This document shows, one piece after another, positions 1-62,743 of a stretch of DNA of 64,000 nt (position 1 is its first letter; each line of letters starts with the position of its first letter). Location: assembly GCA_000091205.1 (NCBI GenBank), contig AP006499.2. One strand, given 5' to 3'. The stretch is from Cyanidioschyzon merolae (taxonomy: Eukaryota). Under the pieces are notes generated by a model. The model was not told the DNA's origin and searched no databases. It saw nothing but the letters and a program-made list of their open reading frames with translations. The position numbers and the translations under genes were made by a program.

Positions 1-518
1 TTAACTCGTTGGATTCATCAATCTTATCCGATGCAACGAGTCGAGCGCCCACGCAAGCGTCTGGGGTAGGCTAAACCCGCCACCGGATAGACTGCTGGAC
101 ATAGATGAAGCGCGCACTAGCGGCGGGACACCGTCCTGACCTTGATGGAAAGTTAGCGTCGCTGTTGACGAGCTGAGACTCCATCCAGAGTCACCCAGTC
201 TTTTCGTTGTGCAGCAGAACGGTTTCCATGGACCCCAGATACCCGATTGCGCGAGATGCGTACGGGCATGCAAACGGCACGCGATGCCGCAGCTGTGTAC
301 AGATTTGTGTATTTGTGTACAGCGTGATGTGGATGCGTGCACGCGTGCATCCATCTCGCGGAACAGTCGATCGAGGCGGGACGCATCCAATAGGGACAAT
401 CATTGACAAGTTGTTCACGATCCTGCTGGTGTACCCAATGCTGCAGGGGAGCAATTCGGGATCGAGTCGTGTACGTTGTGCCTCGAACCTGGCTACCTGA
501 CTGTGCACCTGTGCTGCT

Positions 519-2690
519 ATGGCCTCTGAGGAGGCCGTACTAGCTGGTAACTGTAGCAGCGAGCAGGATGCGTCGGGCACTGCAGTCGTTGCGTGCGCAG
601 AGTCGGCGGCATCATTCGACGAGCAGGCTGCAGCAGCGCAACAGAATCAACTGCTCACTGCCGCTGCAGCAACAGACGGCAGCAGTGCGCGCGATGAAAA
701 ACACAGCACGGAAACAGAGGAGGCTTTGAGGGCAAGCGTAGCGTCCGCGCCGTTCCAGCAGTGCTCCTCTGCTGGGGCGATGTTTCCCAGCGCCGCGGAC
801 GAGCTCGTGGAGCGAGCGCTGCACGATGATCGGTCGCTGGCAGCCTTGCTGAACGCGGACGGTCCGGTACGATGGCCGTCCTCCGAAGTGGTGCTCCATC
901 AGGTAGCATGCTCTCTCGAGCGGCGTTACCTGCTGCACCCCGGAACCATGTACATCTCAAAAAGGTACTTGTGCTTCCAGCTCACGTCAAGCGGCAGCTC
1001 ATCGTTTCTGGAGGCTGCAGGAGCCTCCGCTAGTAGCTTTCTCAGCTTTGGATATAGGTCCAGCCCAGCGGCAAACAGCGGTTCTGCTGCACTGGCCCAA
1101 GCGGAACGGCGCAGTGTCCCTGAAGCAGACGGAGACGCCGTCTGCTCCGCCAGGGACTGTGCCTCGAGCGTTGCTTCCCCGCGTTCTGCGAGCGGCAACG
1201 GTACCACGGTCTCGCCAGGAAGTTTGGCGCAGCAGAGGGCTAGCGATTCCGGGTCTACGACGCTCTGGCTGATTCCCTTCGAGGCAGTGACTTCCGTTCG
1301 CAAATCATCATACCTGTATCTGGAGAGCGCGTTGGAGGTTTCGACGACCTTTGGTCTCTGCAATCATACTCGACATGGCGGCGTGTTCTGGACGAAACCG
1401 CAAGAGGCTGTCTCAGGGATCAAACTACTCCGGTTTGCTGCCTTTTCTGAGCCGAACCGGGATGTCGTGTACCAGTACGTCATGAAGGCTTGGATGGCTC
1501 GACTGAGTCTGCTCGCGCTGGAGGGTCGACTCCCGCTCACGATGCAGACACCCAGCACACAGCACGCTCTGGACAACGCAGGGAAGCCCGCGACGCAACC
1601 GGGCTCTGAAAACAATATGTTTATCGCGGGCGTTTCGGAGGTGAAAAACGAACCTCGCACCACCAAGACGAATACAGCGGTTACCGGTGGCCTCGCGCTG
1701 TCAAATGCTGTGGCTTCTCAGGAGACGCTGAAAACGCCAGACACCAGCGCCAACGGGTCTGTTGTGGAGTCACTATCACGGGAGGACGGTGCTGCGGTTG
1801 CAGTTGAAACGCCCTACGACATCGACGCGGGACAAGTTGTGCTCGAGATACCAGCACACATCACCTCTGCCCAGACAGCTGACAAGGTCCCCGAGGCTTT
1901 GCTCTTTGAACTCTTTTTCGCCGATACCGCAACGCTGCCCAAGCAGTTGAATGAGGCCCTCGGACACACGGAGCTGCAGATGAGCACCTGGCAACTCATT
2001 GAGCCAGCCTCGGACGCAGCTGTGCATGCTGCGAGCGCTTTCCCATCACGCCATCGGACGATATCATATCAGGTGACGGTGCGGCGGGGTATCCTGAGCT
2101 TCACCGGTCACTGCACGGAGTCGCAATCGTTCCGCTTAACGCCCCCGGCATTGCGGGATGCCGGATACCCGTACGGAGCGCTCTACGAAATGTCCGTCAT
2201 CACTCGAGACATGCCCTCATCGGACACGTTTCTTGTCCGCCAGCGAATTTTTTTCGATATGCAGCAGATAGACAAGGTGTGGCGAGTACGCGTTCGCGCG
2301 GTTCTCGGTATCCAGTGGCTTGGACGCACCGTCTGGCGGCCTTTCATCGAGCGCAGTGTGGCGGCTCAGAGCCGCCACGCCTTTGAGCAGTACAGCAAGC
2401 TGATGGACGCAGAAATATCCAAGTTTCGGGCACGAGAAGGTGCAGCTCAAATTCAGCATCATCCGCATGCCTCCAAACCAGAACCAATCATCGCTGTGAT
2501 GTGGGTTGTGCTCGCGAGCAGGGTGCGATCGCTGGTGCAGCGCACTGCTCGGGCCGTGGAACAGGCCCTGGTACGACTACCACCACCGCTGCTCGCTCGT
2601 CTGTTTCTTACGCAAACGGTTCTCTTAATGCTTTGCTCAGGTTTATGCGGGTATCTGTTGGGGCAGCTGAGTTCGCGCAGCTTGCCATAG
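519..2690 (+). CDS. GRAM + VASt domain lipid-transfer protein (Lam/Aster-like), with a C-terminal transmembrane segment
   Basis: There is a GRAM-like segment (EVVLHQVACSLERRYLLHPGTMYISKRYLCFQ) and a C-terminal VASt-like block (ISYQVTVRRGILSFTGHCTESQSFRL ... FDMQQIDKVWRVRVRAVLGIQWLGRTVWRPFIERS), followed by hydrophobic helices (IIAVMWVVLASRV..., LFLTQTVLLMLCSGLCGYLLG). The N-terminus is low-complexity. Confidence 0.45.
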   Translation: MASEEAVLAGNCSSEQDASGTAVVACAESAASFDEQAAAAQQNQLLTAAAATDGSSARDEKHSTETEEALRASVASAPFQQCSSAGAMFPSAADELVERALHDDRSLAALLNADGPVRWPSSEVVLHQVACSLERRYLLHPGTMYISKRYLCFQLTSSGSSSFLEAAGASASSFLSFGYRSSPAANSGSAALAQAERRSVPEADGDAVCSARDCASSVASPRSASGNGTTVSPGSLAQQRASDSGSTTLWLIPFEAVTSVRKSSYLYLESALEVSTTFGLCNHTRHGGVFWTKPQEAVSGIKLLRFAAFSEPNRDVVYQYVMKAWMARLSLLALEGRLPLTMQTPSTQHALDNAGKPATQPGSENNMFIAGVSEVKNEPRTTKTNTAVTGGLALSNAVASQETLKTPDTSANGSVVESLSREDGAAVAVETPYDIDAGQVVLEIPAHITSAQTADKVPEALLFELFFADTATLPKQLNEALGHTELQMSTWQLIEPASDAAVHAASAFPSRHRTISYQVTVRRGILSFTGHCTESQSFRLTPPALRDAGYPYGALYEMSVITRDMPSSDTFLVRQRIFFDMQQIDKVWRVRVRAVLGIQWLGRTVWRPFIERSVAAQSRHAFEQYSKLMDAEISKFRAREGAAQIQHHPHASKPEPIIAVMWVVLASRVRSLVQRTARAVEQALVRLPPPLLARLFLTQTVLLMLCSGLCGYLLGQLSSRSLP

Positions 2691-3546
2691 GGCTTGCAAG
2701 CGCAAAAGATTTGGTGTACAGCGCTCCCGCTCTGGAGCTCGCCATGCAATGAACAACGAGTCTGTGAAAGGCCACAGATTGTTTCAGTGTCAGAGCGTGA
2801 TCGCTTCCGGGTTGCACGGTCACGATGACCAGCATTGACGCTGAGGTTTTGGCTGGCGCACCGCCCCTGGGAGCTTGCTTCCCTGGGAAACCGGGCATAT
2901 GCCATGGTAGCGCCGTGCACCATGCATGCTGGTGCGACTGTGTAGCGCGCGCGTGCGCGATCACGACAAGTACGCACATCAGAGCGACGACAAACGCCAC
3001 CAGGTTCGAAGCTGTGCTGCGAATGACTATCTGCGATTCGAGTCGGGATCAGTCTAACATCTGAGAATGATCACATTGAGCATGATTCGGCAAACCGTGT
3101 GTTGCTGTGTACTGCTTTGCGATGTTATGCGCCGTATGATTCCTTCATGGTACATGATCGACGAGTCAACGCAATCACGCACCAGATTCGTGAACACCGC
3201 CAGGAACCAGGCACCGATCGCAGCGCCTCCGCACACGCTACCACGCACACGTTGACCCAGTGCAGGATGCCGTTTGTGAATACTCCACAAGATCGATCCA
3301 GCGACGTTCAAGATGTTGTTCGGAGACCAGGCGGTTTGGCCTCGACCTTTCGCACTGCCGCTCGAGGCGCTGGCAGGCACGCAGGCACGCGTGCACCACT
3401 GCAACACGGAAATATCCACGCGAAGCCGGTTCAATGCATCGATCGAACACTGGGCAAAGAAACTCGCTGATACCCATCCATCACGACGTTCGACGCTGCA
3501 TCCATCGTGGGCGCGCTTGCACAGAATCCGTCCCATTCGGATCGCT

Positions 3547-4831: not shown

Positions 4832-5140
4832 TCAGTGAAACAAAAAACGTTCTACGACTTTTGAGGGTAAAACTATATCAACGCGCAGAAGCTTCCCAGT
4901 TTGTTTTTCGTACCGGCCGACTGCTATAGGCTTCAGCTCCTCCTGGTAAATCTCGAGAATCAGGGGCTGCCCCACGAGCTCTGATCGCCTAACCTCCTCG
5001 GGTCTTGTCTTCAGCGTCGCCCATGTCCTGATATATGAATGGCGGCGTTCAGGTTTTGTATTCACGAACTCCATGCGTTTGCGGACCCTGGTTGAACGCA
5101 CGAATACACGGAGTCCTCGAACTCGTGCCGCCTGTGCCAC
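4832..5140 (-). CDS. Small 102-aa ORF ending 10 nt upstream of the pseudouridine synthase start codon, on the same strand in a different frame; hypothetical or uORF-like
   Basis: Support is the ORF alone. There is a weak, unconvincing resemblance to the SRP14/Alu-domain region (LLRVDIVLPSKVVERF). GC is about 50%. Confidence 0.15.
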   Translation of the reverse strand: MAQAARVRGLRVFVRSTRVRKRMEFVNTKPERRHSYIRTWATLKTRPEEVRRSELVGQPLILEIYQEELKPIAVGRYEKQTGKLLRVDIVLPSKVVERFLFH

Positions 5141-6960
5141 TAAAGTCTCGACATACTCCCGTCGAGTAAACGCCTTTTCTCACCCATGTCCGTTCCTGTT
5201 CTTCTTATTGGTCAAATGGTCTGCTTCGCTCGGTGGTCGGCGAGGAGGAGGATTTTTCCTTTTTCAAGCATCCGGGGATGACAGGCCGTCAGGATCCGTG
5301 ACCTCCGTGTCCATAACTTTCCCCTGGATTTTTATTTCCTCAAAACGAACGCATCCCTTTATGCCGTTCGATGAGGACCTTCCCGGAGGCAGAAGGACTT
5401 GCGGAATAAAGACGACCGGTGCCGCTGGTTTCACCGTGGGCTGTACGCCTCAGCGATTCGCTCCGTCGACCGATCATTACACTTCACGATGGAAAACACG
5501 CCTGCGACGGGGATGGACCACGGAGTGTACCCAGGAATGAAAAGCAGCTCTACTCTCGATAGAATCCACAAAAGTTCGAATGCAATGGGAAAAGTCTCCA
5601 ACGATTAGGGAACGGCGTGCTGTTGTATGAGTCTTCTCTACGAGCGAAACTGAGGCCGCCAAATGAATCCACTGCAAATAGAACAGATGAAGAGGTCATT
5701 GGCCTCTTGGATTTCGATCCTACATAGAAAGGACTCCATCTCCACGAATACCCATGAACGCTCCCATCGCCGCGTCCGCAGAAAGCCTCATCGACAGAAA
5801 AACAAACCCCAGTCCCTGTGCTTCATATCGATGGTAACTTACCAGGAACATTGCTGTAGTTACGATTTCGGTCGAAGATGGCCGCGCTTGAACTAGGACT
5901 TTTGCGACTATATCCCAGTGTTTTCGAGACTACACGAAAAAGCTGGTGAGAAATAGAGACGCCCGTTGCGGCTGATATCGTCGGTTTCACCTACCCCAAA
6001 GTGAACAACGGGTCGCCTTCGACCATCTTTCGCAAGCAGTCTATGAATGTACCTGTTTTGGCGCGGAACGCATATACTTGGTCCTTTCAGTGTTCCTCAT
6101 CCAGCCGAGTCCATTGGTATGACTGATCTGAGGGAGGAATGCAGTCCTCATTGAACTGTTCACTAGAGCATATATCTAGACGCAATGCGTCTACGATCTA
6201 TCGAGTACATCGCATAGCGATTTCGATCTCGTGCTATACACCGCAGCAGGGATGAAACAGTACTGCGTTGGAAGGCTATAAGAAGTGATGCTCCGTAGCG
6301 TTAAGCGAAACCGCGGCGCCTCGACCTGGCGCGCGTCATTCGCATCACCTGCCTTTTAGAGAATAAGCTATCGATGAAGCCTCGCTTTGACAGAAATGGG
6401 GCGCGCTGTGGTGTGTTCGACACCCACATTGCGCTTCTTGACAAACGTCCCAAACGAAGACCATTTGCGTTGACGCCGTACCGACGACGCGAAGCGCCCA
6501 GCCAGCGGATCCGTCCTAGGCCTCGCTGGAGGGCGGCGCCTCCTTTGAAACGGCTCCGACCAGCTACGGCTGCAACAGCCGTGCACGTTCAGGAGCGCCC
6601 GTGCAACGCGTCGTCAAGTCGCCGGCGTCGAATGCGTGTTCGCTCCGACGGCTGCCTGGAAGCTACTTGGGCACGCCACTCTACTCAGTAAAGTGACGCA
6701 CTTCAGTCAATGTCATCCGGTGCATACGCGTTTACCAATAGTTCATGGTGAGAGGCGCAGCACGTCTGCATGTTCGGTCGACGATATCGCAACCGCAAGC
6801 ACACGCGATCCCGCGCAGAAAAGCCTTCCCTGTCCCTCTGCATCGGAACGAAATATCCGCGCAGAAATGTCTTCTCGCATGGTGAAGCGCTTCGCTCCCG
6901 AACGCAGTGCGTCAACTGCAGGAATTGCTTCCCGCCAAGTGCGCACGCGCGTGATACGAT

Positions 6961-12256: not shown

Positions 12257-13048
12257 TCAGCGCTCGTCGGAACGAGCCTCCCGCTTATCCTCCTTCAGCG
12301 CGTCTCGTTTGTAAATGACCTCATCGATGAGACCGAACGCTTTCGCGGCCTCCGCAGACATGAAATGATCGCGCTCCATTTTGTCCGCAATAACATGCTT
12401 ATTCTGACCCGTGTGCTTGGCGTAGAGCTCGTGCAAACGCTCACGCAGAAACAGAATCTCATTGGCGTGGATGGCAATATCTGAAGCCTGCCCGCCGGCT
12501 TGCCCACTCGGCTGATGAATCATCACACGAGCGTTCGGTAAGCAGCGGCGCTCGCCCGGCTCACCCGCGCATAGCAGCAACGATGCCATAGAGCTCGCCT
12601 GGCCCAAGCAAACCGTGTGCACCGGAGCAGATATATATTGCATGGTGTCGTAGATCGCCATCCCCGCTGAGATGATGCCCCCTGGTGAGTGAATGTACAT
12701 AGAGAGCGCCTTCGCCGGCGCTACCGACTCCAAGTACAGCAACTGCGCAACGACGAGAGAGGCCACGGTATCCGTGATAGGACCGTTGAGCACAATAATA
12801 CGCTCTCTGAGCAGACGCGAGTATATGTCGTAGACGCGCTCTCCTCGCGGTGTCTGTTCGAGGACGATGGGTACGAGTTGCGCTTGAGCGGCGTCAGCGC
12901 CTGCTGTCGTGGGCCCAGCGTCGAAGCCCGGGCCGGTTCGGTTCGGAATCCCAGGGCGGAACCAGGAGTAAAAGCGAGCACGTGCACCTAGACGCGAAAA
13001 AGTTTGCGCAGACGGCAGGATTCGAACCTGCGCGGCGAGACACCACAT
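12257..13048 (-). CDS. clpP: ATP-dependent Clp protease proteolytic subunit ClpP, organellar, with an N-terminal presequence
   Basis: The ClpP core is [24 protein letters not shown] ... [21 protein letters not shown] ... [14 protein letters not shown] ... [16 protein letters not shown], which gives the Ser-His-Asp triad contexts. The annotated ATG (13046-13048) lies inside the tRNA-Ser gene described next. Confidence 0.85.
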
Positions 13049-13139
13049 GATACCGAGGCGTCAGCGCGAGGCAATGTATACCAGCACTGGCTGCAGAACG
13101 CGTTCGAGTCATGCACCTTAACCACTCGGTCACGTCTGC
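13007..13139 (-). tRNA. tRNA-Ser (anticodon CGA) with a 51-nt intron at the canonical 37/38 position (about 13052-13102)
   Basis: The cloverleaf was folded by hand on the minus strand. 
- The acceptor stem is GCAGACG/CGTCTGC, 7 of 7 paired, with discriminator G. 
- U8 is present; the D-stem has 3 bp (class II) and the D-loop contains GG. 
- The anticodon stem is CATGA/TCATG, 5 of 5, with loop C-U-CGA-A-A (U33, A37). 
- A long variable arm GGTG..CGCC is typical of Ser. 
- The T-arm is GCAGG-TTCGAAT-CCTGC, perfect. 
The mature length is 82 nt and the intron is 51 nt. Confidence 0.7.
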
Positions 13140-22865: not shown

Positions 22866-23992
22866 AATGCATGCGTGCACGCATACGCCCGCGCATCGAT
22901 GAGCTGCCCTGTACTGGTGGCAGTCGTCGAGCGGCTGCGATTGCTGCCAGGCTCTATTGCGCGTGCATCGGTGCATTGGGACACGACGCAGTGCAGATTT
23001 TTCCTCTTTGACACATCGTTGAAACACCCACGCAGACGGACGGCAGACCAGCGATTCCCGATTGCGCGATGGATATGAGCGATTCGCGAAGCATCCGTCG
23101 TTGCACGCCGTCATTCCATACTCAAGACCCATACGTACTCGCGGGGGTACTTGTTACGTTTCACGTTGCATCGGGCGCGGCGTGCATGCTTTAAGCGTTC
23201 GCGATAGCACGCACGGCGCCGGCGCGTACGCAGCACAGACATAGAACGGCTGTGCGATACCACAGAAGGCATTGAATCCGTAATGTCGATGCTATTCGCT
23301 GCGGCGATCGGGGTACGGCGGAGCGCGCTCGGTGGGTGGCCCCCGCCCGAGAATCCCGCAACCACAGAATCAGGTTCCGAATTGCATGGCGAGCTCATGC
23401 ACCTGCTCCCAGCAGCAGCGTATCGGAGCAGTCGGGGAACCCAGACCAGTAGTTGCATTGACAACGTAAACGAGCACCGTCTGATCGCGAGAATGGACCC
23501 AGCGACGTTGGCATCCGACCGGAGCCTGCGCTTCGTTGGCGCTCGTACTTGATGAAGCGCGCGACGCTGCGATCGGCAGGACTGACGTTGACCGCCATCT
23601 CTGTAGTCACGCACCTGGGATGCACGAATACCGCTGCTGGAGCGACGCTCGAGGATGCGCACGCGACCCATACCAATCGGGGAGCGCCATCGTCGACGAT
23701 GGCGATAAAGGCACGGCGCCCGCTGGAACGCGTGAATGCCGAATACCGGCGACCAACACGACGCCATGCGGCTGCACAGGGCCGGGCAGTCGGTGCTCCT
23801 GAGTCGTCGCGCGGGCTCGTGGCGGTGCAGCTGGCACCGACCGAAGCCCTGCCGCAGGCGCAGCTTCGTTTTCGACGGCGATCCGTCGTTGTCGTTGGCG
23901 TCGTCGTCGTCGTCGAGACGATGCACCACACAGAGCTGCTGCCCCGGATCCGGCGAGGCCAGTGAACCACGCGCCCATGCTGCAAGCATACT

Positions 23993-31093: not shown

Positions 31094-32315
31094 TTTCTCT
31101 CCGACGATAAAACGTTTCCATGGACAATGGGTCCCAGATTGTGAGATGGATAATGATTATCGAAAGAGCGTCCATCATGACGCACTTACCTCCGAGTTCC
31201 ATTACCTATACTTGCTTCCAGATGTACTGGTCGTTTCGTATGTCCTATCGGTCACAGAGTACCTGCTTTGGGCGCCTGCGGTAGCGCTTATATATCGCTG
31301 ATGCCGATGCATCACGGAGACAGAACAGCGTTGCCATACCGTTGAGTTCGCTCGGGCGTACTGTGAAATGTTTGGCTCCCTTCCCAGTGTCATCAATACC
31401 AACCTTTGCAGGCTTTTTCTGTGACCGTTTCCCGTCGCTTTCTCTTATCCCTGGCTTGACATGCACCAGTCTCGCCTTTCTATCAAGAACAGCTGTCCAG
31501 TGTCGAAGGACGTTGATCACAGCGTTCAATGGCCGACTTGCCGCTTCAGGCTGTTGTCGACGCATACCATGCACAGGTGAACGTTGCGATCTATGCTTCG
31601 CTTGCGATTTTCATCTTCCATGGATAGAGCTTCGGTTGCCCTGTCGCAGATTTGGCACGTCCGTGTAATCGGATGTTCGCATATGTCCACCACACCGCAT
31701 CCTCCGAGGTGCACCCTGTTTCACGTGAACACTCGCGTCGTCGCTCGCTACGTACCCGTGACGAATACGAGAAATCGTCTCGATGCCTTCCTCCATCTAC
31801 GCGCTCGGTGCAGTACCCTGGAATCACGGGCTTCTTCTGTGCGATCCAACTGCCGCTGCTCTGGCTGTTGCAAGCACGTGTTGTACTATTCTATAACGGA
31901 CTTATCGAAGACGATGTATTCAACGACGAAACTATTACTTGAAGCAAAATCAAGGCTGGACAAGAAGGCAGGGAACCTCGATCTGTCCATGGTCGCTTCG
32001 CGCAAGGCGGTTTCGCATAATCCACTGGAAGCGATCTCCACGATGACTAAAGACCGAGTCCGAGGCACTTTTCTATGCGAAGAGAAGAGACAGGAGCTCC
32101 TGGGGGCATACCCCGTGTAACATATCTCGCTGATGTCGCATGCCGTTCCGTTGATGGCCACCAAAATAGGAGGTTTTTTTCTCGACCGGAATTGCTTATC
32201 TTACGAGACATGTTGCGTGAGCTTCCGTCATGAGCTTGTGCACAAGCCTCCGATAGACGACGTTGGGTCTCCCTTCATCTTCTGTTGGCTGGCGAGAATT
32301 GCTGCACCATCGAAT

Positions 32316-41931: not shown

Positions 41932-43453
41932 GTGGCTCAGATCGACATTGACAAGCACTTCGTGCCAGCGTATTCTGCCTGGTTCAATACAAACCAATGT
42001 ATCTTCTCTGTTGTCATACGCCATTTTGATGTTCTAAGACGCATGGACGAATCGTTTGCAACCGTGGCGTCGCTCGTCATCAAGTCGTTGTGTACCTTTG
42101 CCAGCCGTGAACTACGGTGCTGCCCCTGTGCTCTTGCGGGGCAGCAATCGAAAAGATTTGCCTCGGTCAGTGGATATATGCTGGTGACGGCGACGGTGAC
42201 GAGCTTGTAGTTAAGGCGTAGTGGATATACAAAGACGAACGGAGAGCTTCGGTGATGCTGCCAAACTAGTACTTCTGAATTCCGCGAAGAAATCAGGTAT
42301 AGAGCATGTCGATTACATGCGTGTCGCCCCGGCACGTAGAGGAAGCAGGTTACTATTGCACTAGTCTCCGCGAGCAACAAGGAAGCGTTCTCACGACCTC
42401 GCGCAGAGCGCTGGCAGAGCTTGATGAAGATTTCTCGCTTAGAGGGAGGAAGTGGGAAGGGTTTTTAAAGAATGATAGAGGGCAACAGAGTATCGAGCTG
42501 CAAAGCCTTTGTCAAAAATTGGCATGTGTCGCGCGACGAGACTCATGTTCAGGTGTTCAGGATAGATGAAGAGCAAGACTTTATGATCAGTGTGGATCCC
42601 GGATTCAACAACTTAATCGCTGTAGCTGTCCCTCTACATCCAGAGGACAGAGCTGAAAATCTGAACGGCGTGAAGTTGTACCAGATCAACTTTTCCAGGC
42701 CTGGGTACCAACAAGAGTCGGGTATGGCAGACTCAAGGCGGCATACCAACAACTTGAATGATTGTGTCAGGACTGGTCTCGACGCTGTGTGCACCGTGTC
42801 GTGCAGCGTGCGCTGCTTTGCACGCTTCATTTAGAGAGTACATCAGCGTAAAAGTGGCTCGTGCGGACGATCTTTGGCTGGAGTATGCGACTTCGTGCTA
42901 TGACCGCCAATGGATTGGGGTTTACTGAGGCAGGGAACGTGCGTCCGCCAACGTCTTCAATGAGTTGGACAAAGAAATGACCGATACGTATTATCGTTTG
43001 GCGTCAGCCTATCACGCAAGACGTGCTGAGGCGCGAAAGGAGTGCATCTCTGATCCTTTGATGAGCGCGTTCAACGAGTGCACGAATCGATGCTGCACGA
43101 CTCGCGTCGATGAGTTCAGGACTGCATTCATGCATCAGGGGCGCGGCCGCACATTGGAGTAGGCAGAGAAGGGGCGCGTGAAGAAGAGACGGACGCACGA
43201 GGTGGTATGCGGTAAGCTGATCGAACGTCAGGTGACGAGGGAATCAAAATTGAGAGGCTTCCCATGTCGTACTTCCACCGGCAAGCATGCGCGCAGGCAC
43301 TCTCTGCACCAAAGCTTGAAAGCCTCGATCAACCTGCGAAATTGTTCCGTGCTTCCGGAGCGCCCAGCGCCTTTGTGTCGAGCAGATAATCGAGGGAATC
43401 GTTTATTGGTGAGGTCGGGGATTTTGCTGACACACACGGAATACTTTCGATAA
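41932..43453 (+). pseudogene. Decayed TnpB/Fanzor-like (RuvC-fold, OMEGA-family) ORF remnant, copy B, in an AT-rich gene-free island (about 40.5-43.9 kb)
   Basis: The ORF chain is on the plus strand and interrupted by stops and frameshifts. 
- ORF 42472..42834 carries the RuvC-I-like motif RIDEEQDFMISVDPGFNNLIAVAVP (canonical hhGIDLGxxNLAxxA). 
- ORF 43178..43453 carries VVCGKL...FPCRTSTGKHARRHSLHQSLKASINLRN, which is Cys-containing with an NAAxNI-like tail. 
- The RuvC-I to RuvC-III spacing is about 265 aa. 
- Region B is homologous at protein level to copy A around RuvC-I. Confidence 0.35.
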
Positions 43454-57374: not shown

Positions 57375-58877
57375 TCATAACCATGGTTCACCTGTGGCAA
57401 TGCGCACGACTGAGGATCGAAGCGGTGCCACCCTTTCAATGAACTGCATTCCTAGACCGCGAAAACTGCTTGCTAAAGTGGATCCGAGTCCTCGTGTTCG
57501 GGTCGGAAAGGCAAAAACGCGACGCAACGCAGAAAGCGTCACTAACATCGCCGTGTTCAGAGGCAACCTCTCTCGAGTATAGACAGCCAAGACGCTTGGA
57601 TCGCCGATATCCCGTCCCGTTTGCCATGCTTGTTTCAAAACACGAGCAAGCGTCTGCGCATCCGCAAGCCCCAGGTTTACGCCCTGTCCAGCGAGCGGAT
57701 GAACGACATGGGCGGCGTCACCCACTAAGACGACTCGATTGGCGTCGTATCCAGTAGCGCTCCCAAAGTGGAGTGGAAACGACCAACGATCTCTGCCATC
57801 CGTTCGACTCGGGATCAGTCGTTGAAAACTGGGCACTACGGGGAAGCTTCGCCTATCGATCGGGTACGAGCTCTGGCTCAAAAAGCGACGATACGGAGCG
57901 TGCTGGCCTCCATCGACATTCACTCGATGTAGCGCTGCATGCGTTGCATCGAGAAACTGCGAGGCGGAGGCCTCAGTCTCCAGCCAATCCGCTTCGGATT
58001 CATTCGTGGACCAGACGATATTGCTGTACATGCCATGCTGTCCCATGGGGAGAATTGCCAGCGGGCCTCTCGGGAGAAAACGTTGAATCGCCACCAGGTT
58101 GGGTTCGCGATTCTCTACAATAGCGACCACTGCCCGCTGATGGTATGAACGCCCTATCCAGGTTAGTTCGGTCTGGTGGCGGACTCTGGAGCGAGCGCCA
58201 TCAGCTGCAATCACCAGGGAAGCGGCCACAGCGAATGGTGGATGTTCCGCTTCAGAGAGATGCAACTGTGCCCAGGGATGGGATGCTGGCCAGGTCAGGG
58301 TATCGAAGCAGGCTCTGGACCAGCATATGGAACCGGAGACTGAACTGGTTCCATCTCGACCGCTGGCGTTGCCGGTGGGCTCCTTCTCGCCAGCGACTCG
58401 CTCTAGACACCGGTGAAGCGTCTCGAGCAGTGCGGTTTCTTCGACGATATATCCCAGCGCTGGTGGCTCGGTGGAGAGGCGCCCGACGCAATCCGCGGCA
58501 TCAAAAGTGATTTTCTCCTGCGCTGAGCGCCCATACGCGAACAGTGTTGGAAACGCGGTGATGGCCCCCTGCGGTAGGCGTTCCCATACGCCAAGCGACG
58601 CGAGAAACTTCTGCGAAGCCGGTGTGATCGCCACAGTGCGTAGTCCAGCTGCTGTGTCATTGATAGGTTGCCAAGCCGGTGCACGTCGCGGATCAACGAG
58701 AAGAATGCGCGCTCCTGGCTCGATGAGGTGCCGGTGCAACGCGAGTGCTAGCGTTGAGCCAACGACACCGGCCCCTACAATCGCCACGTCAGCCGAAGCG
58801 GTCGGTGAACCTGTTTCGGGCATGACCGCTTCTCGGAACGTAACCGGCGACACACGGCGAAACCAGGAGGCTTTCAA
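57375..58877 (-). CDS. COQ6: FAD-dependent ubiquinone-biosynthesis monooxygenase (COQ6/UbiH family)
   Basis: The FAD-binding motifs are DVAIVGAGVVGSTLALAL and LVGDAAHVVHPLAGQGVNLGLADAQTLARVL (GD...H.P..GQG). Confidence 0.8.
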   Translation of the reverse strand: MKASWFRRVSPVTFREAVMPETGSPTASADVAIVGAGVVGSTLALALHRHLIEPGARILLVDPRRAPAWQPINDTAAGLRTVAITPASQKFLASLGVWERLPQGAITAFPTLFAYGRSAQEKITFDAADCVGRLSTEPPALGYIVEETALLETLHRCLERVAGEKEPTGNASGRDGTSSVSGSICWSRACFDTLTWPASHPWAQLHLSEAEHPPFAVAASLVIAADGARSRVRHQTELTWIGRSYHQRAVVAIVENREPNLVAIQRFLPRGPLAILPMGQHGMYSNIVWSTNESEADWLETEASASQFLDATHAALHRVNVDGGQHAPYRRFLSQSSYPIDRRSFPVVPSFQRLIPSRTDGRDRWSFPLHFGSATGYDANRVVLVGDAAHVVHPLAGQGVNLGLADAQTLARVLKQAWQTGRDIGDPSVLAVYTRERLPLNTAMLVTLSALRRVFAFPTRTRGLGSTLASSFRGLGMQFIERVAPLRSSVVRIATGEPWL

Positions 58878-58899
58878 ACTGGCCTAGAGAAGAACGCCT

Positions 58900-61800
58900 T
58901 CATACGCAGGTGCCCGATGAAAAAAGATTCGCACGCCCACACCCCTGGAAACAAACGTCTTTTAAAAGAAAAAAGTTGCTGCCAGTGGTACAGCAGTGGC
59001 AAACACGCCCTATACAAGAAGTCACCAACTGACTTGCAGACGCCTCCCAGTTTTTTTTCGACCGGCCGCCTACTACTGGTTTCAACTTTTTCTCATATAA
59101 TGCCACTTTGAGAGGTTGTCCAATAAAGTTCCCTCTTGTCGACTCTGAAGGTTTTTTCTCCATCGCCGCACATCTCCTTATACATTGATCGCGGCATGAA
59201 AGCCACGGTTCACAAACTCCATACGTTTCCTGCCATCTTTGGTTGTACTTGTCAATGCAAGTAGTCCACGAACTTTCGCCATCCTTTCCATATGCTCTTC
59301 CGTCAGCGGACCGTATTTTGCTATTTCCTCAGGGCTCCGCTGACACTTTTCCATCTCCACTCCCTGAAGTGTACAACCCAGCTAATGGTGTGTATAGGAC
59401 GTTCGGAACTCATCCATCGGTATTGTAACAAAACGCCGTGCACACTCTTTGAATGTTCTTGTCGTTGGAGCTGGCGTAGTCCCTTTTTGGGTCATCTAGC
59501 GCCCTGCTCCGTACGCCACTACCAGCCTCTGATTTTCATCCTCCTTCAAGGCGCTCAACGCATTGAAAAAATTCGCGAACGCCCGCTGCTTCCCGCATTA
59601 CATATTCATACGCAAACGAACCCACCGAGGCTTTGTATACTCCTCCCACAGCGCATCCCAATGGGCAACACGAACTTCCATGAATTTCCGAAAAGCTTCA
59701 AAGTCCGCTCTTCGGCTCGCTCAAAGCTTCCAGGTGATCCTTCATTCCTGCATTCCGTGTCTCGATTCTCTTCCTCGCATTCATGATTCCCGATTCTCGA
59801 TAGTATCTCGCTCACGAGAACCTCAAAAGACGCATATCTTTCTGACGTAAGTTGCCGTTGTTAGCAACTTCTGCACGCTTGGGTGCAGCGATGGTTACGA
59901 TATTCGTATTCCCAGGGTTCGTGCCAATGACAAAATCGTTATCCTCTACATCCTGCGTGGCAAGATACGCCTCCTTCTCATCTCCACGCTTCGTCACGGC
60001 CGCAGCCGAGGGCGGAACTCGACGATCTGCCTCCAAACGCCGATAGTGAACACACTTGGATACTTCACCGGTTTCGATCATCCTAGTGAATACCTTTTGT
60101 TTGCTCGTATTGAGAAGTTTGAAATTGAGGATATTCTTCCAGTACGTCTCACGGTTTTCGCCGGAGAATTCCCGCCTGCTGGCATTGACCTCCGGACTGG
60201 TCTCCCTCATGATGCCGTGAAGGATTCTGGAGTCGATAGTCACGAAATGTGGCTTGATGTTCCACAATGGAACTACGTTGAAACGCTTCCCCATTAGGGC
60301 AGCCTTCCGTCTCTTCCATTCTCCATTTCTCTCCTCTCTCAGCTTCATCTCTGCCTTGCGTTCGAGTTCTCGGTCCAAAAACACGAAATAGCGTAACATG
60401 AGGCGATAGTATCTTTCCTTATCTTTTTTCAACGCTGATATCTTTTCTGCTGGATTTGCCAGCCCCAGTACCGCACGATGCTCTTTAATAGCCGCACGGA
60501 TGACGGAATCTTTATTCTTTCTCCTGTGTGACGCCATCTCTCCGACGAATTCGGTCTCATCTTTATGTTGGCAATCGTTCGTGATGCCATCGATACTGGC
60601 CCATATCCCCTGGCAAGAGAGACCCCGGTGCAGCGCAAAGATGGAGCGTATCAGAAAGCATTCGAGGTTCAAGGTCATAGGGTCCCTCAGGTTCGTGAGG
60701 TACTTCATCGCCCCATGGCAGTAAATATTCCCGTCACCGCTGTATCGAGTACCCTCGCAGCGGCATTCCGCGAAGTTTTCCTGGAGGACATGCACTCGCT
60801 CATTTCTCCAAGACGTTTCCGCTGTGCCAACCATCAGGTGGCGAATAACGGTCTTGTCGAAAAATTCCACCCGCACCTCGACCGTTTTGATGTCCGTCAC
60901 GTCTTCGTTCATCTTCCTCACCAAATGCATTATTCTTGCAAAAGCCTTGCAATCGCTCATGCAGTAGTGCGCGATACGGTCTCTGAGATCCTCCCGCAAA
61001 TTTTGCTTCTACGGATTCATGATATGCTTGAGACGACAGGCTTTCGGTACTATTTCGACGTAGTGTCGTCTTTCCTCGAGCCATTGGCGTCGGGCCGCCT
61101 GCCTTAGCTTCTTCGTCTCATCCTGTTCCTCTCTGCTCTGCACTGTTTTTTCTTTGTTTCCGCCTGCCGGCGGTAATAGCCCTCTAGGATCCTCCACTTC
61201 CATGTCCAAACTTCCCTTTTTCATTTTTGAAAACGAATGCACTTTGAACTCCCCTGCTATAAACCCCGAAAACTCACTTGAATACACTCACTTGAGGGTT
61301 GAAACAAAACTGAAATAAAAGACTGTATTTTTCGACGACTTCAACATCGTCGCAGCTTGTACTTTAGAACGAGAAGTCAACGAATATTCAGGATCGCGTT
61401 TCGCTTCAACGGCGAGATGCGCGTCGTGTCCCATGTATACCAGGTATGGAGGTGCGTCTATCGACCGCGCTACATAGAACAAATAACAGAGACTAACGAT
61501 CAAGTATCAACGATATAGAGATTTATTCCCCCTCGATGATAAATGTGAAGAGAGGAAAAAGCTTTCAGTATTGTCGAAGGCCTACCCTCGAGGCGGAAGG
61601 TCCCGCGAGCCGGACAAGTCTGCCAAGCTTGCGCTCTGTGCGACTCTGCAGTTGCGGGTACTTTAGCGAGACCTAAGCTGAAACTCGTACGCAACGCAAT
61701 TCTTTCTGGTGCGAGGGGCAGCTAAGCTCCGTCTGGGCGTCGCCCTGGTCGCAGTGGTCTCCAAGTATATCGCTTCGCGCTGCCATAGGCAGCACGTCTA

Positions 61801-61927
61801 TCTGCGCAGCTTGCTTGCCCCCAGAATCATGATGCATCCCGATTAGGTATTGCGTGAACCACACCTCGAGCAGACGCCCTCCGTAGTACGGCAAAGCCGT
61901 TGTATCCCCATGTTGCATCTGCTCCAA
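58900..61927 (-). pseudogene. Decayed TnpB/Fanzor-like (RuvC-fold, OMEGA-family) gene, copy A, filling an AT-rich island (about 58.9-62.0 kb; 40-45% GC against about 60% in flanking genes)
   Basis: Consecutive minus-strand ORFs tile the island: 61673..61927, 61500..61694, 61288..61503, 61009..61287, 59812..60999 (395 aa), 59606..59815, 59178..59360 and 58900..59163. 
- Three of them share one frame and are separated only by a single in-frame TGA (61288-90) and TAG (61009-11). 
- The others require +/-1 frameshifts. 
- The RuvC-I-like motif [19 protein letters not shown] is at about 59885-59935, with Asp replaced by Asn. 
- An RuvC-III-like tail FVNRGFHAAINV is at about 59181-59215, about 230 aa downstream. 
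- The RuvC-I block aligns with copy B: [26 protein letters not shown] against EEQDFMISVDPGFNNLIAVAVPLHPE. Confidence 0.4.
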
Positions 61928-62743
61928 TGGTTTCGTCGTTATTGTGGGTGCTTAAAGCAGACACTCGGCGTTCCTTAGAACTCAAGGAACTACCAGCATA
62001 TCCAAAATGAAATATAAGTTATGGAACTTGAAGGTACGTTGCATCATGCTGGAAGCTTTCCCCACAGCCATGATCCATCCCGCAATCTGGGCCCCATGCG
62101 CAATGAAAGCGTTTTGCCATCAAAAAACGCGACCCGTACCGAACGTTCACGACATTTTTAAACGAATGCACAACTAGCTGCGAAGGCGCAATTCTTGTAT
62201 GCACTTGCTGTCCAGCGCAGCGACAGTTTGGAGCTACCAAGCGCTTGGACCTGGAAGCGTCTTCCGCATCTTTGCGATTTCGAGTGCACGGCAGAGCGGT
62301 GAAGGAAAAGCGTCTAGAACGAAGCTGCGTGTGAAACGCAAGCGTCCCAGCGTACGATGGTACCAGCGAGCGGCTCAGGAGGTCACTTTCAGGCCAAGGC
62401 GGTGTGATAGCTATCGACTCGAAAACGCTCGCAACTGTTCGAGACCCAGCGCCCTTTAAACTCGTGGTCGAAGCACTGGTGCTTTCTGCGTTTTCTGCTG
62501 TGCTGCCACTTGGCTGCTGTTCTCGTCAGTTAACTGGACCAGTTCGCCAAAGTACCAGGTTGTGGCACTGTGCTTGCAGCTGGGAGCGCGGATCGAATCG
62601 TCTGAACCACGTCACCAGCGGCACGCTCTTGTCCGTCTTGTTTATCTCGCGCGTCGTTGCGAGAGCTCGCGGAGTTGCATGGCACACGCTTTGATAGAGG
62701 TCTGGACTGGGGCGAGCGCATCCCCGCCGAGCATCTTCAACTA

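Follow-up and report, generated by a model that had tools for sequence, protein, structure and literature searches.

What occupies the block of approximately 3 kb and lowered guanine-plus-cytosine (GC) content that lies between COQ6 and the next gene in a 64,000-nucleotide stretch of the red alga Cyanidioschyzon merolae (contig AP006499.2; the whole stretch is referred to as the window)? A preliminary description based on the letters alone proposed an AT-rich island carrying a decayed gene of the TnpB/Fanzor family of RNA-guided RuvC nucleases. The analysis presented here identifies the block, almost certainly, as one of the ~ 150 reported copies of CMe-1A, a DNA element of ~ 3.2 kb that lacks terminal inverted repeats (TIRs) and contains a single Fanzor1 gene; this copy is full length but non-functional. 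No result contradicts the identification. The finding is already known, since the family was published in 2013 together with its consensus sequence and Fanzor1 protein.

Identity of the block

The CMe-1A 3169-bp consensus and the 734-residue CMe-1 protein, both from supplement 2 of PMC3627910, served as the reference. CMe-1A was described by Bao and Jurka (2013, Mob DNA 4:12; PMC3627910) as a C. merolae Fanzor1 element about 3 kb long, with about 150 copies that share about 80% identity with the consensus. According to the same study, CMe-1A represents the single Fanzor1 family listed for C. merolae, has no TIRs and has undetermined target site duplications (TSDs); its 5′ 635 bp correspond to the non-autonomous element TE-N2_CMe, and its sole gene encodes CMe-1, a single-exon protein of 734 amino acids (PMC3627910). 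Positions 58950–62122 of the window, minus strand, are a full-length copy of this element: local alignment places consensus positions 2–3169 on window positions 62121–58956 with 84.4% identity and 23 small indels. The frame-repaired translation is collinear with the published CMe-1 and identical to it at 542 of 734 residues (74%), the tblastn match passing through frames −2, −3 and −2. A metagenome scan located 365 loci encoding relatives, 80 of which were fetched for comparison. The proposal of a pseudogenised TnpB/Fanzor-family RuvC nuclease gene on a transposon is thus borne out by the CMe-1A alignment and by the profile and fold comparisons described below.

The window belongs to chromosome 17 of C. 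merolae 10D, as seven of its open reading frames (ORFs) match 10D proteins exactly (e.g. CMQ040C and CMQ066C). COQ6 is located at 57375–58823/58877 on the minus strand; exact look-up of the COQ6 protein read from the first ATG gave no record. In six-frame translation the region 58.9–62.1 kb displays consecutive ORFs on the minus strand, the largest of which encodes 395 amino acids (59812–60999); with stops read through and three changes of frame, this chain can be read as one gene. The lower-GC block between COQ6 and its neighbour, tiled by the pieces of one broken gene, is therefore as first described, except for the GC content, which had been given as 40–45%. The element (58950–62127) has 49.3% GC, compared with 55.9% for the whole window and 57–58% for the flanking genes; 500-nt windows range from 45 to 54% inside the block and from 55 to 60% in its flanks. 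Calculated in this manner the dip is genuine, and the element is the lowest-GC 3.2-kb stretch anywhere in the 64-kb window.

Anatomy and lesions of the pseudogene

The features of the element are as follows, with the premature stops located by comparison with the consensus.

58950–62122, minus strand: full-length, decayed CMe-1A copy (consensus alignment; similarity to the 80 metagenome copies ends at 58950 and ~ 62122–62130)
61204–62122, minus strand: non-coding 5′ region of the element, consensus 1–905 (consensus alignment)
59010–61203, minus strand: Fanzor1 (CMe-1) pseudogene of 734 codons, from ATG 61201–61203 to the ancestral stop TAG 59010–59012 (repaired translation, tblastn)
61009–61011, minus strand: premature stop TAG, Tyr in the consensus
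59917–59919, minus strand: RuvC-I catalytic position, AAC (Asn) for consensus Asp431, GADPGN changed to GTNPGN
59812–59814, minus strand: premature stop TGA, Arg in the consensus (FSRARYY)
59712–59720, minus strand: 8-bp deletion near 59719, a frameshift (consensus position 2396; tblastn frame −2 to −3)
59598–59600, minus strand: premature stop TAA, Tyr in the consensus (NLYCGKQRA)
59496–59498, minus strand: premature stop TAG, Trp in the consensus (AYGAGRW)
59409–59411, minus strand: alternative ('rearranged') RuvC-II glutamate E603, retained, VDEFRTS changed to MDEFRTS
59382–59384, minus strand: premature stop TAG, Glu in the consensus (THHELGC)
59202–59204, minus strand: RuvC-III catalytic position, GGC (Gly) for consensus Asp672, NRDFNAAINI changed to NRGFHAAINV
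59181–59184, minus strand: 2-bp insertion near 59184, a frameshift that creates TAA 59178–59180 directly after the RuvC-III motif
59051–59059, minus strand: 1-bp insertion in an A-run near 59059, a frameshift (consensus alignment)
59022–59024, minus strand: premature stop TGA, Arg in the consensus, in the basic C-terminal tail

The ancestral gene comprises 734 codons rather than the ~ 900 first estimated. The ORFs at 61.3–62.0 kb that had been counted with it have no Pfam match and are located outside the Fanzor1 protein, in the 5′ region, the outer ~ 635 bp of which (about 61480–62122) form the module in common with TE-N2_CMe. Two in-frame stops had been reported. The TAG at 61009–61011 is real; the TGA at 61288–61290 exists but is positioned upstream of the start codon, within the 905-nt non-coding region, and does not break the gene. 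As a count of lesions two is too low, because the copy contains six premature stops, all of them single-base changes of consensus codons, and three frame-shifting indels.

The RuvC triad of the family consensus, D431/E603/D672, reads N/E/G in the window copy. The motifs given in the preliminary description do occur here, among them the RuvC-I-like motif with Asp replaced by Asn and the RuvC-III-like tail GFHAAINV, which it placed ~ 230 residues downstream; the spacing between RuvC-I and RuvC-III in the family consensus is 241 amino acids. The canonical RuvC-II position is occupied by Gly (AYGAG) in the family consensus and a conserved Glu (VDEF) occurs ~ 35 residues downstream, as in the rearranged catalytic site that has been reported for Fanzors (PMC10530073). 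The window copy is dead: six premature stops and three frameshifts break its reading frame, and only one of its three catalytic RuvC residues is retained. The copy is now inert DNA directly upstream of COQ6, without sign of current function. A code in which all stops are read as sense, as in Blastocrithidia, was considered and rejected because the flanking genes are uninterrupted in the standard code and because one nucleotide substitution in a consensus codon accounts for every stop.

Assignment to the Fanzor1 family

Database search with the repaired 705-residue protein returned 43 protein matches with 59–81% identity and E values down to 2e-265 (P0001, 2.1e-265). All originate from Joint Genome Institute (JGI) metagenome contigs and none of the 43 from the annotated 10D proteome. 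The question of intact paralogs elsewhere in the genome had been taken up as early as 2013, with the reconstruction of a consensus protein. The relatives carry GADPGNTN, VDEFRTS and NRDFNAAINI where the window copy reads GTNPGNTN, MDEFRTS and NRGFHAAINV.

Direct phmmer searches of the Protein Data Bank (PDB) with the window ORF and the repaired C-terminal half yielded a best match at only E = 0.26, to SpuFz1 of Spizellomyces in the correct region. A profile built from 24 close relatives reached only E = 0.47, and the AlphaFold2 (AF2) model computed from the shallow close-relative alignment had a mean predicted local distance difference test score (pLDDT) of only 34. Because the shallow profile was insufficient, a deeper alignment that includes distant relatives was needed. 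Exhaustive HMMER searching identified 1510 relatives, and profile A2 was built from a 67-sequence alignment of P0001 and 66 relatives, distant ones among them. This profile matched PpFz1 of Parasitella at E = 3.5e-21, SpuFz1 at 3.1e-14 and GtFz1 of Guillardia at 5e-7. The fold was examined on the intact relative P0001 rather than on the window pseudogene. With the deeper alignment, AF2 produced a P0001 model with pLDDT of 82.5 and a predicted template modelling score (pTM) of 0.80, which shows the bilobed TnpB/Cas12-like fold with WED, REC, RuvC and TNB domains. The top seven Foldseek matches of this model in the PDB are all Fanzor1 structures (E ~ 1e-15, TM 0.72 on the target), and Cas12 proteins come next. 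Therefore, the profile A2 matches and the Foldseek result assign the family to Fanzor1; both the profile match and the structural match that the preliminary description anticipated were obtained.

Element ends and the 3′ tail

At the 3′ end, similarity between the window and the metagenome copies stops sharply at 58950 (…GAAAGRCGTTTGTT, followed by the break). At the 5′ end, a core boundary at 61430–61435 is common to all subfamilies and the CMe-1A-type 5′ module extends further, to ~ 62122. Solo copies of the segment equivalent to window positions 61539–62121 occur in metagenome loci L016, L017 and L026, and gene neighbourhoods differ between the metagenome loci encoding relatives. Upstream of the equivalent of 61435, loci L007, L030, L031, L066 and L081 differ from L033, L041 and L054, and these in turn from L014 and L050, so that at least three different 5′ modules accompany a common Fanzor core. 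For this reason the CMe-1 family seems to have exchanged 5′ ends.

The preliminary description had proposed inspecting the element ends for TIRs or TSDs. No inverted-repeat pair links 58950 and 62122, and no orthologous empty site that would define the ends and a TSD was found, all near-identical contigs breaking inside the element. Short-read contigs that match the window at 99.3% identity cover COQ6 and end 20–200 nt into the element, the behaviour expected of a repeat; these breaks, like the variety of gene neighbourhoods among the metagenome loci, count in favour of mobility. Directly outside the element, a T/C-rich run (e.g. TTTTTC or TTCTCTC) occurs at nearly all of the 19 independent 5′ junctions that were listed (L006–L078 and the window), and many copies have a conserved TTTGTT after the published 3′ terminus. 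Together these sequence features suggest a putative oligo-T target or target-adjacent motif (TAM), and an element that may be ~ 6 nt longer than the deposited consensus. Only 127 nt separate the 3′ end at 58950 from the downstream COQ6 start codon (58823) on the same strand, so that the promoter region of COQ6 must either border on the transposon or extend into it.

One further feature was delineated at the 3′ end.

58950–59100, minus strand: conserved 3′ tail, a candidate omega-RNA scaffold and terminal hairpin region, which overlaps the last codons (alignment of 50 copies)

The consensus ORF ends inside a small hairpin (GAGAC…GTCTAG), downstream of which are a GGCG/CGCC hairpin and then a terminal hairpin of 7–12 bp. 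Most copies contain one of two sequence variants of the terminal hairpin, CGTTCGA/TCGAACG and CGTTTTTC/GAAAGGCG. Both the terminal hairpin and the tail have decayed in the window copy. RNAalifold assigned the 3′ tail only −5 kcal/mol, with shuffle z-scores that average −1.2, and Rfam contains no match for it. By analogy with related systems, it is plausible that the tail specified an omega-RNA.

Weighing the identification

Several observations weigh against the reading of the block as a Fanzor1 transposon and its proposed mechanism, without contradicting the identification. The 3′ tail, in which hairpins are conserved, gives covariation of hand-specified helices that is not above that of shuffled alignments. 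No Pfam model scored above threshold with the individual ORFs, the repaired protein, the relatives or the CMe-1 consensus. The best score, to Cas12f1-like_TNB, remained below the cut-off (E = 0.002–0.5 in the relatives). The relatives carry a precomputed DUF8286 (PF26935) label; PF26935 was not among the Pfam models scanned, and no paper mentioning DUF8286 was found. The TNB domain of SpuFz1 and of ISDra2 TnpB contains a CCCC zinc finger that the CMe-1 clade has lost, retaining HH..C..C. The corresponding CMe-1 segment, VDEFRTSYTHHELGC…EKC…RGLLALVSTT, is without the two CxxC pairs, and the wider clade consensus keeps one Cys. Lastly, the element encodes no transposase; it contains a single conserved ORF, and the ORFs of the 5′ region belong to no Pfam family.

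Among the alternative explanations, the least improbable is that the dead copy was co-opted for a putative non-coding role, either as promoter or 5′ untranslated region of COQ6 or as a source of an omega-like RNA that it would still make. The 3′ end of the element does abut COQ6 in the same orientation, and the junction is kept in the contigs 99.3% identical to the window. However, such adjacency is expected by chance given the short intergenic spacers of this genome, the hairpin and tail from which an RNA would derive are degraded, and the 43 protein-database matches include no intact 10D Fanzor protein that could use it. Co-option is thus improbable.

The preliminary description favoured a comparatively recent acquisition, by transposon or horizontal transfer, that was later pseudogenised. 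The low GC content is what commends this explanation, which would require rapid pseudogenisation and is nevertheless highly improbable. The CMe-1A consensus itself contains only 52.3% GC, and the copy differs from it by 236 GC-to-AT changes versus 149 AT-to-GC changes; the low GC therefore reflects family composition and decay, not recent foreign origin. The copy has diverged by 15.6% from the consensus and accumulated its 23 indels. At ~ 16% divergence from its family consensus, and with ~ 150 copies reported for the family, the insertion is old rather than recent, and the family is multi-copy and old in the C. merolae lineage.

A domesticated, catalytically dead Fanzor acting as an RNA-guided DNA binder (compare bacterial TldR), or a spliced host gene, is scarcely conceivable. 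In its favour, the fold-defining motifs are still recognisable despite the replacement of two catalytic residues. Against it, the frame is interrupted by six stops of all three kinds and by the three frameshifts, whereas flanking genes are read without interruption in the standard code. Moreover, introns are very rare in this genome, and what breaks the frame are point changes in consensus codons rather than insertions resembling introns. A decayed CMe-1A copy is hence retained as the identity of the block.

Relatives in metagenomes and possible past activity

All three catalytic motifs occur in one ORF in only 6 of 58 non-redundant metagenome copies, and only P0001 approaches full length. P0001 is a 752-residue open frame with D-E-D intact on a JGI metagenome contig (L001 10001–12259; also L003 and L004), and is the only near-full-length frame among the fetched relatives. 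It contains a tandem ~ 25-residue repeat insertion (…QEVQDNDLIVDAAKHEENK…) directly before RuvC-I and has no in-frame ATG upstream of residue 30. The CMe-1 clade may conceivably represent a Fanzor1 system that is still active, or was until recently, in Cyanidioschyzon populations of hot, acidic springs. This proposal, which we regard as doubtful, draws on the P0001 frame with D-E-D, the absence of the TNB zinc finger, the terminal 3′ hairpin and the T/C-rich run at the 5′ junction as a possible TAM. The window copy is dead regardless. Were the P0001 copy active, it would represent a Fanzor1 that is naturally adapted to heat and acid and has no zinc finger.

Judging from characterised TnpB/Fanzor systems, CMe-1 would, while the family was active, have associated with an RNA made from the 3′ end of the element. 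This RNA would have guided the single RuvC active site (D431, the rearranged E603 and D672) to cut matching DNA beside a short motif. Such RNA-guided cutting may have helped the element persist or spread, and transposition would have depended on a further enzyme supplied in trans.

Other features of the window

Alignment of the CMe-1A consensus located four smaller fragments in the window, and a second Fanzor1 relic, older and much more divergent, was recognised.

31102–31346, plus strand: CMe-1A fragment
23046–23270, plus strand: CMe-1A fragment
5001–5123 and 5260–5353, minus strand: CMe-1A fragments
42373–43420, plus strand: Fanzor1 relic, ~ 35% amino acid identity to the CMe-1 family

Among the fragments, two correspond to the first ~ 240 nt of the element (80% and 70% identity), the part common to TE-N2_CMe, and one is an internally deleted remnant. 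The relic has a frameshift near 42827, a readable RuvC-I motif (SVDPGFNNL) and a degenerate C-terminal motif (…SLKASINLRNC..ERP), and coincides with a stretch of lower GC (~ 52%). Because further CMe-1A fragments are present, the window is not repeat-poor for this family, and together with the second relic they show that the block is not a unique locus of the window.

In addition, an Rfam tRNA match of 48.9 bits spans 133 nt at 13007–13139 on the minus strand. ARAGORN does not call this match, which suggests an intron-containing or otherwise unusual tRNA gene; the ClpP ORF (12257–13048) overlaps it with its 5′ end.

Comparison with known systems

The locus has little discovery value, the family being published and the copy non-functional. 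It provides a positive control, in which a decayed RuvC nuclease was correctly recognised from raw sequence through three short motifs. Fanzor specialists may note that even in metagenomes of wild Cyanidioschyzon the majority of copies are dead, with one near-intact ORF only, and that the CMe-1 clade is without the canonical TNB zinc finger.

With the TnpB of IS200/IS605 and IS607 elements, CMe-1A shares membership in the superfamily of RuvC-fold RNA-guided nucleases, the lack of TIRs, a gene located towards the 3′ side, a non-coding 3′ end that is conserved and a subterminal hairpin. However, CMe-1A is a eukaryotic nuclear element without a TnpA (Y1 or serine) transposase, and CMe-1 is approximately twice the size of TnpB, has a rearranged RuvC-II glutamate and remains below threshold for the Pfam OrfB and TNB models. 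The characterised Fanzor1 proteins SpuFz1 (PDB accession number 8GKH), PpFz1 (9CF0) and GtFz1 (9CER) (Saito 2023, Xu 2024) have in common with the CMe-1 family significant profile and fold similarity across WED, REC, RuvC and TNB, the GxDPG RuvC-I motif, the alternative glutamate in DE[FY]xTS, the RuvC-III motif NRDxNAAxNI and a basic C-terminal tail, although the sequence identity is only ~ 14% and the window copy is a pseudogene. The closest counterpart is CMe-1A itself, which comes from the same organism and aligns end to end at 84.4% identity. Both have the layout of a 905-nt 5′ region, a single ORF of 734 codons and a ~ 60-nt tail, both are without TIRs, and both have the 5′ module in common with TE-N2_CMe. 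The window sequence differs in being an individual decayed copy rather than a consensus, and the multi-copy alignment adds two minor refinements to the published element, namely ~ 6 more conserved nucleotides (TTTGTT) past its 3′ end and a T/C-rich run directly outside its 5′ end.

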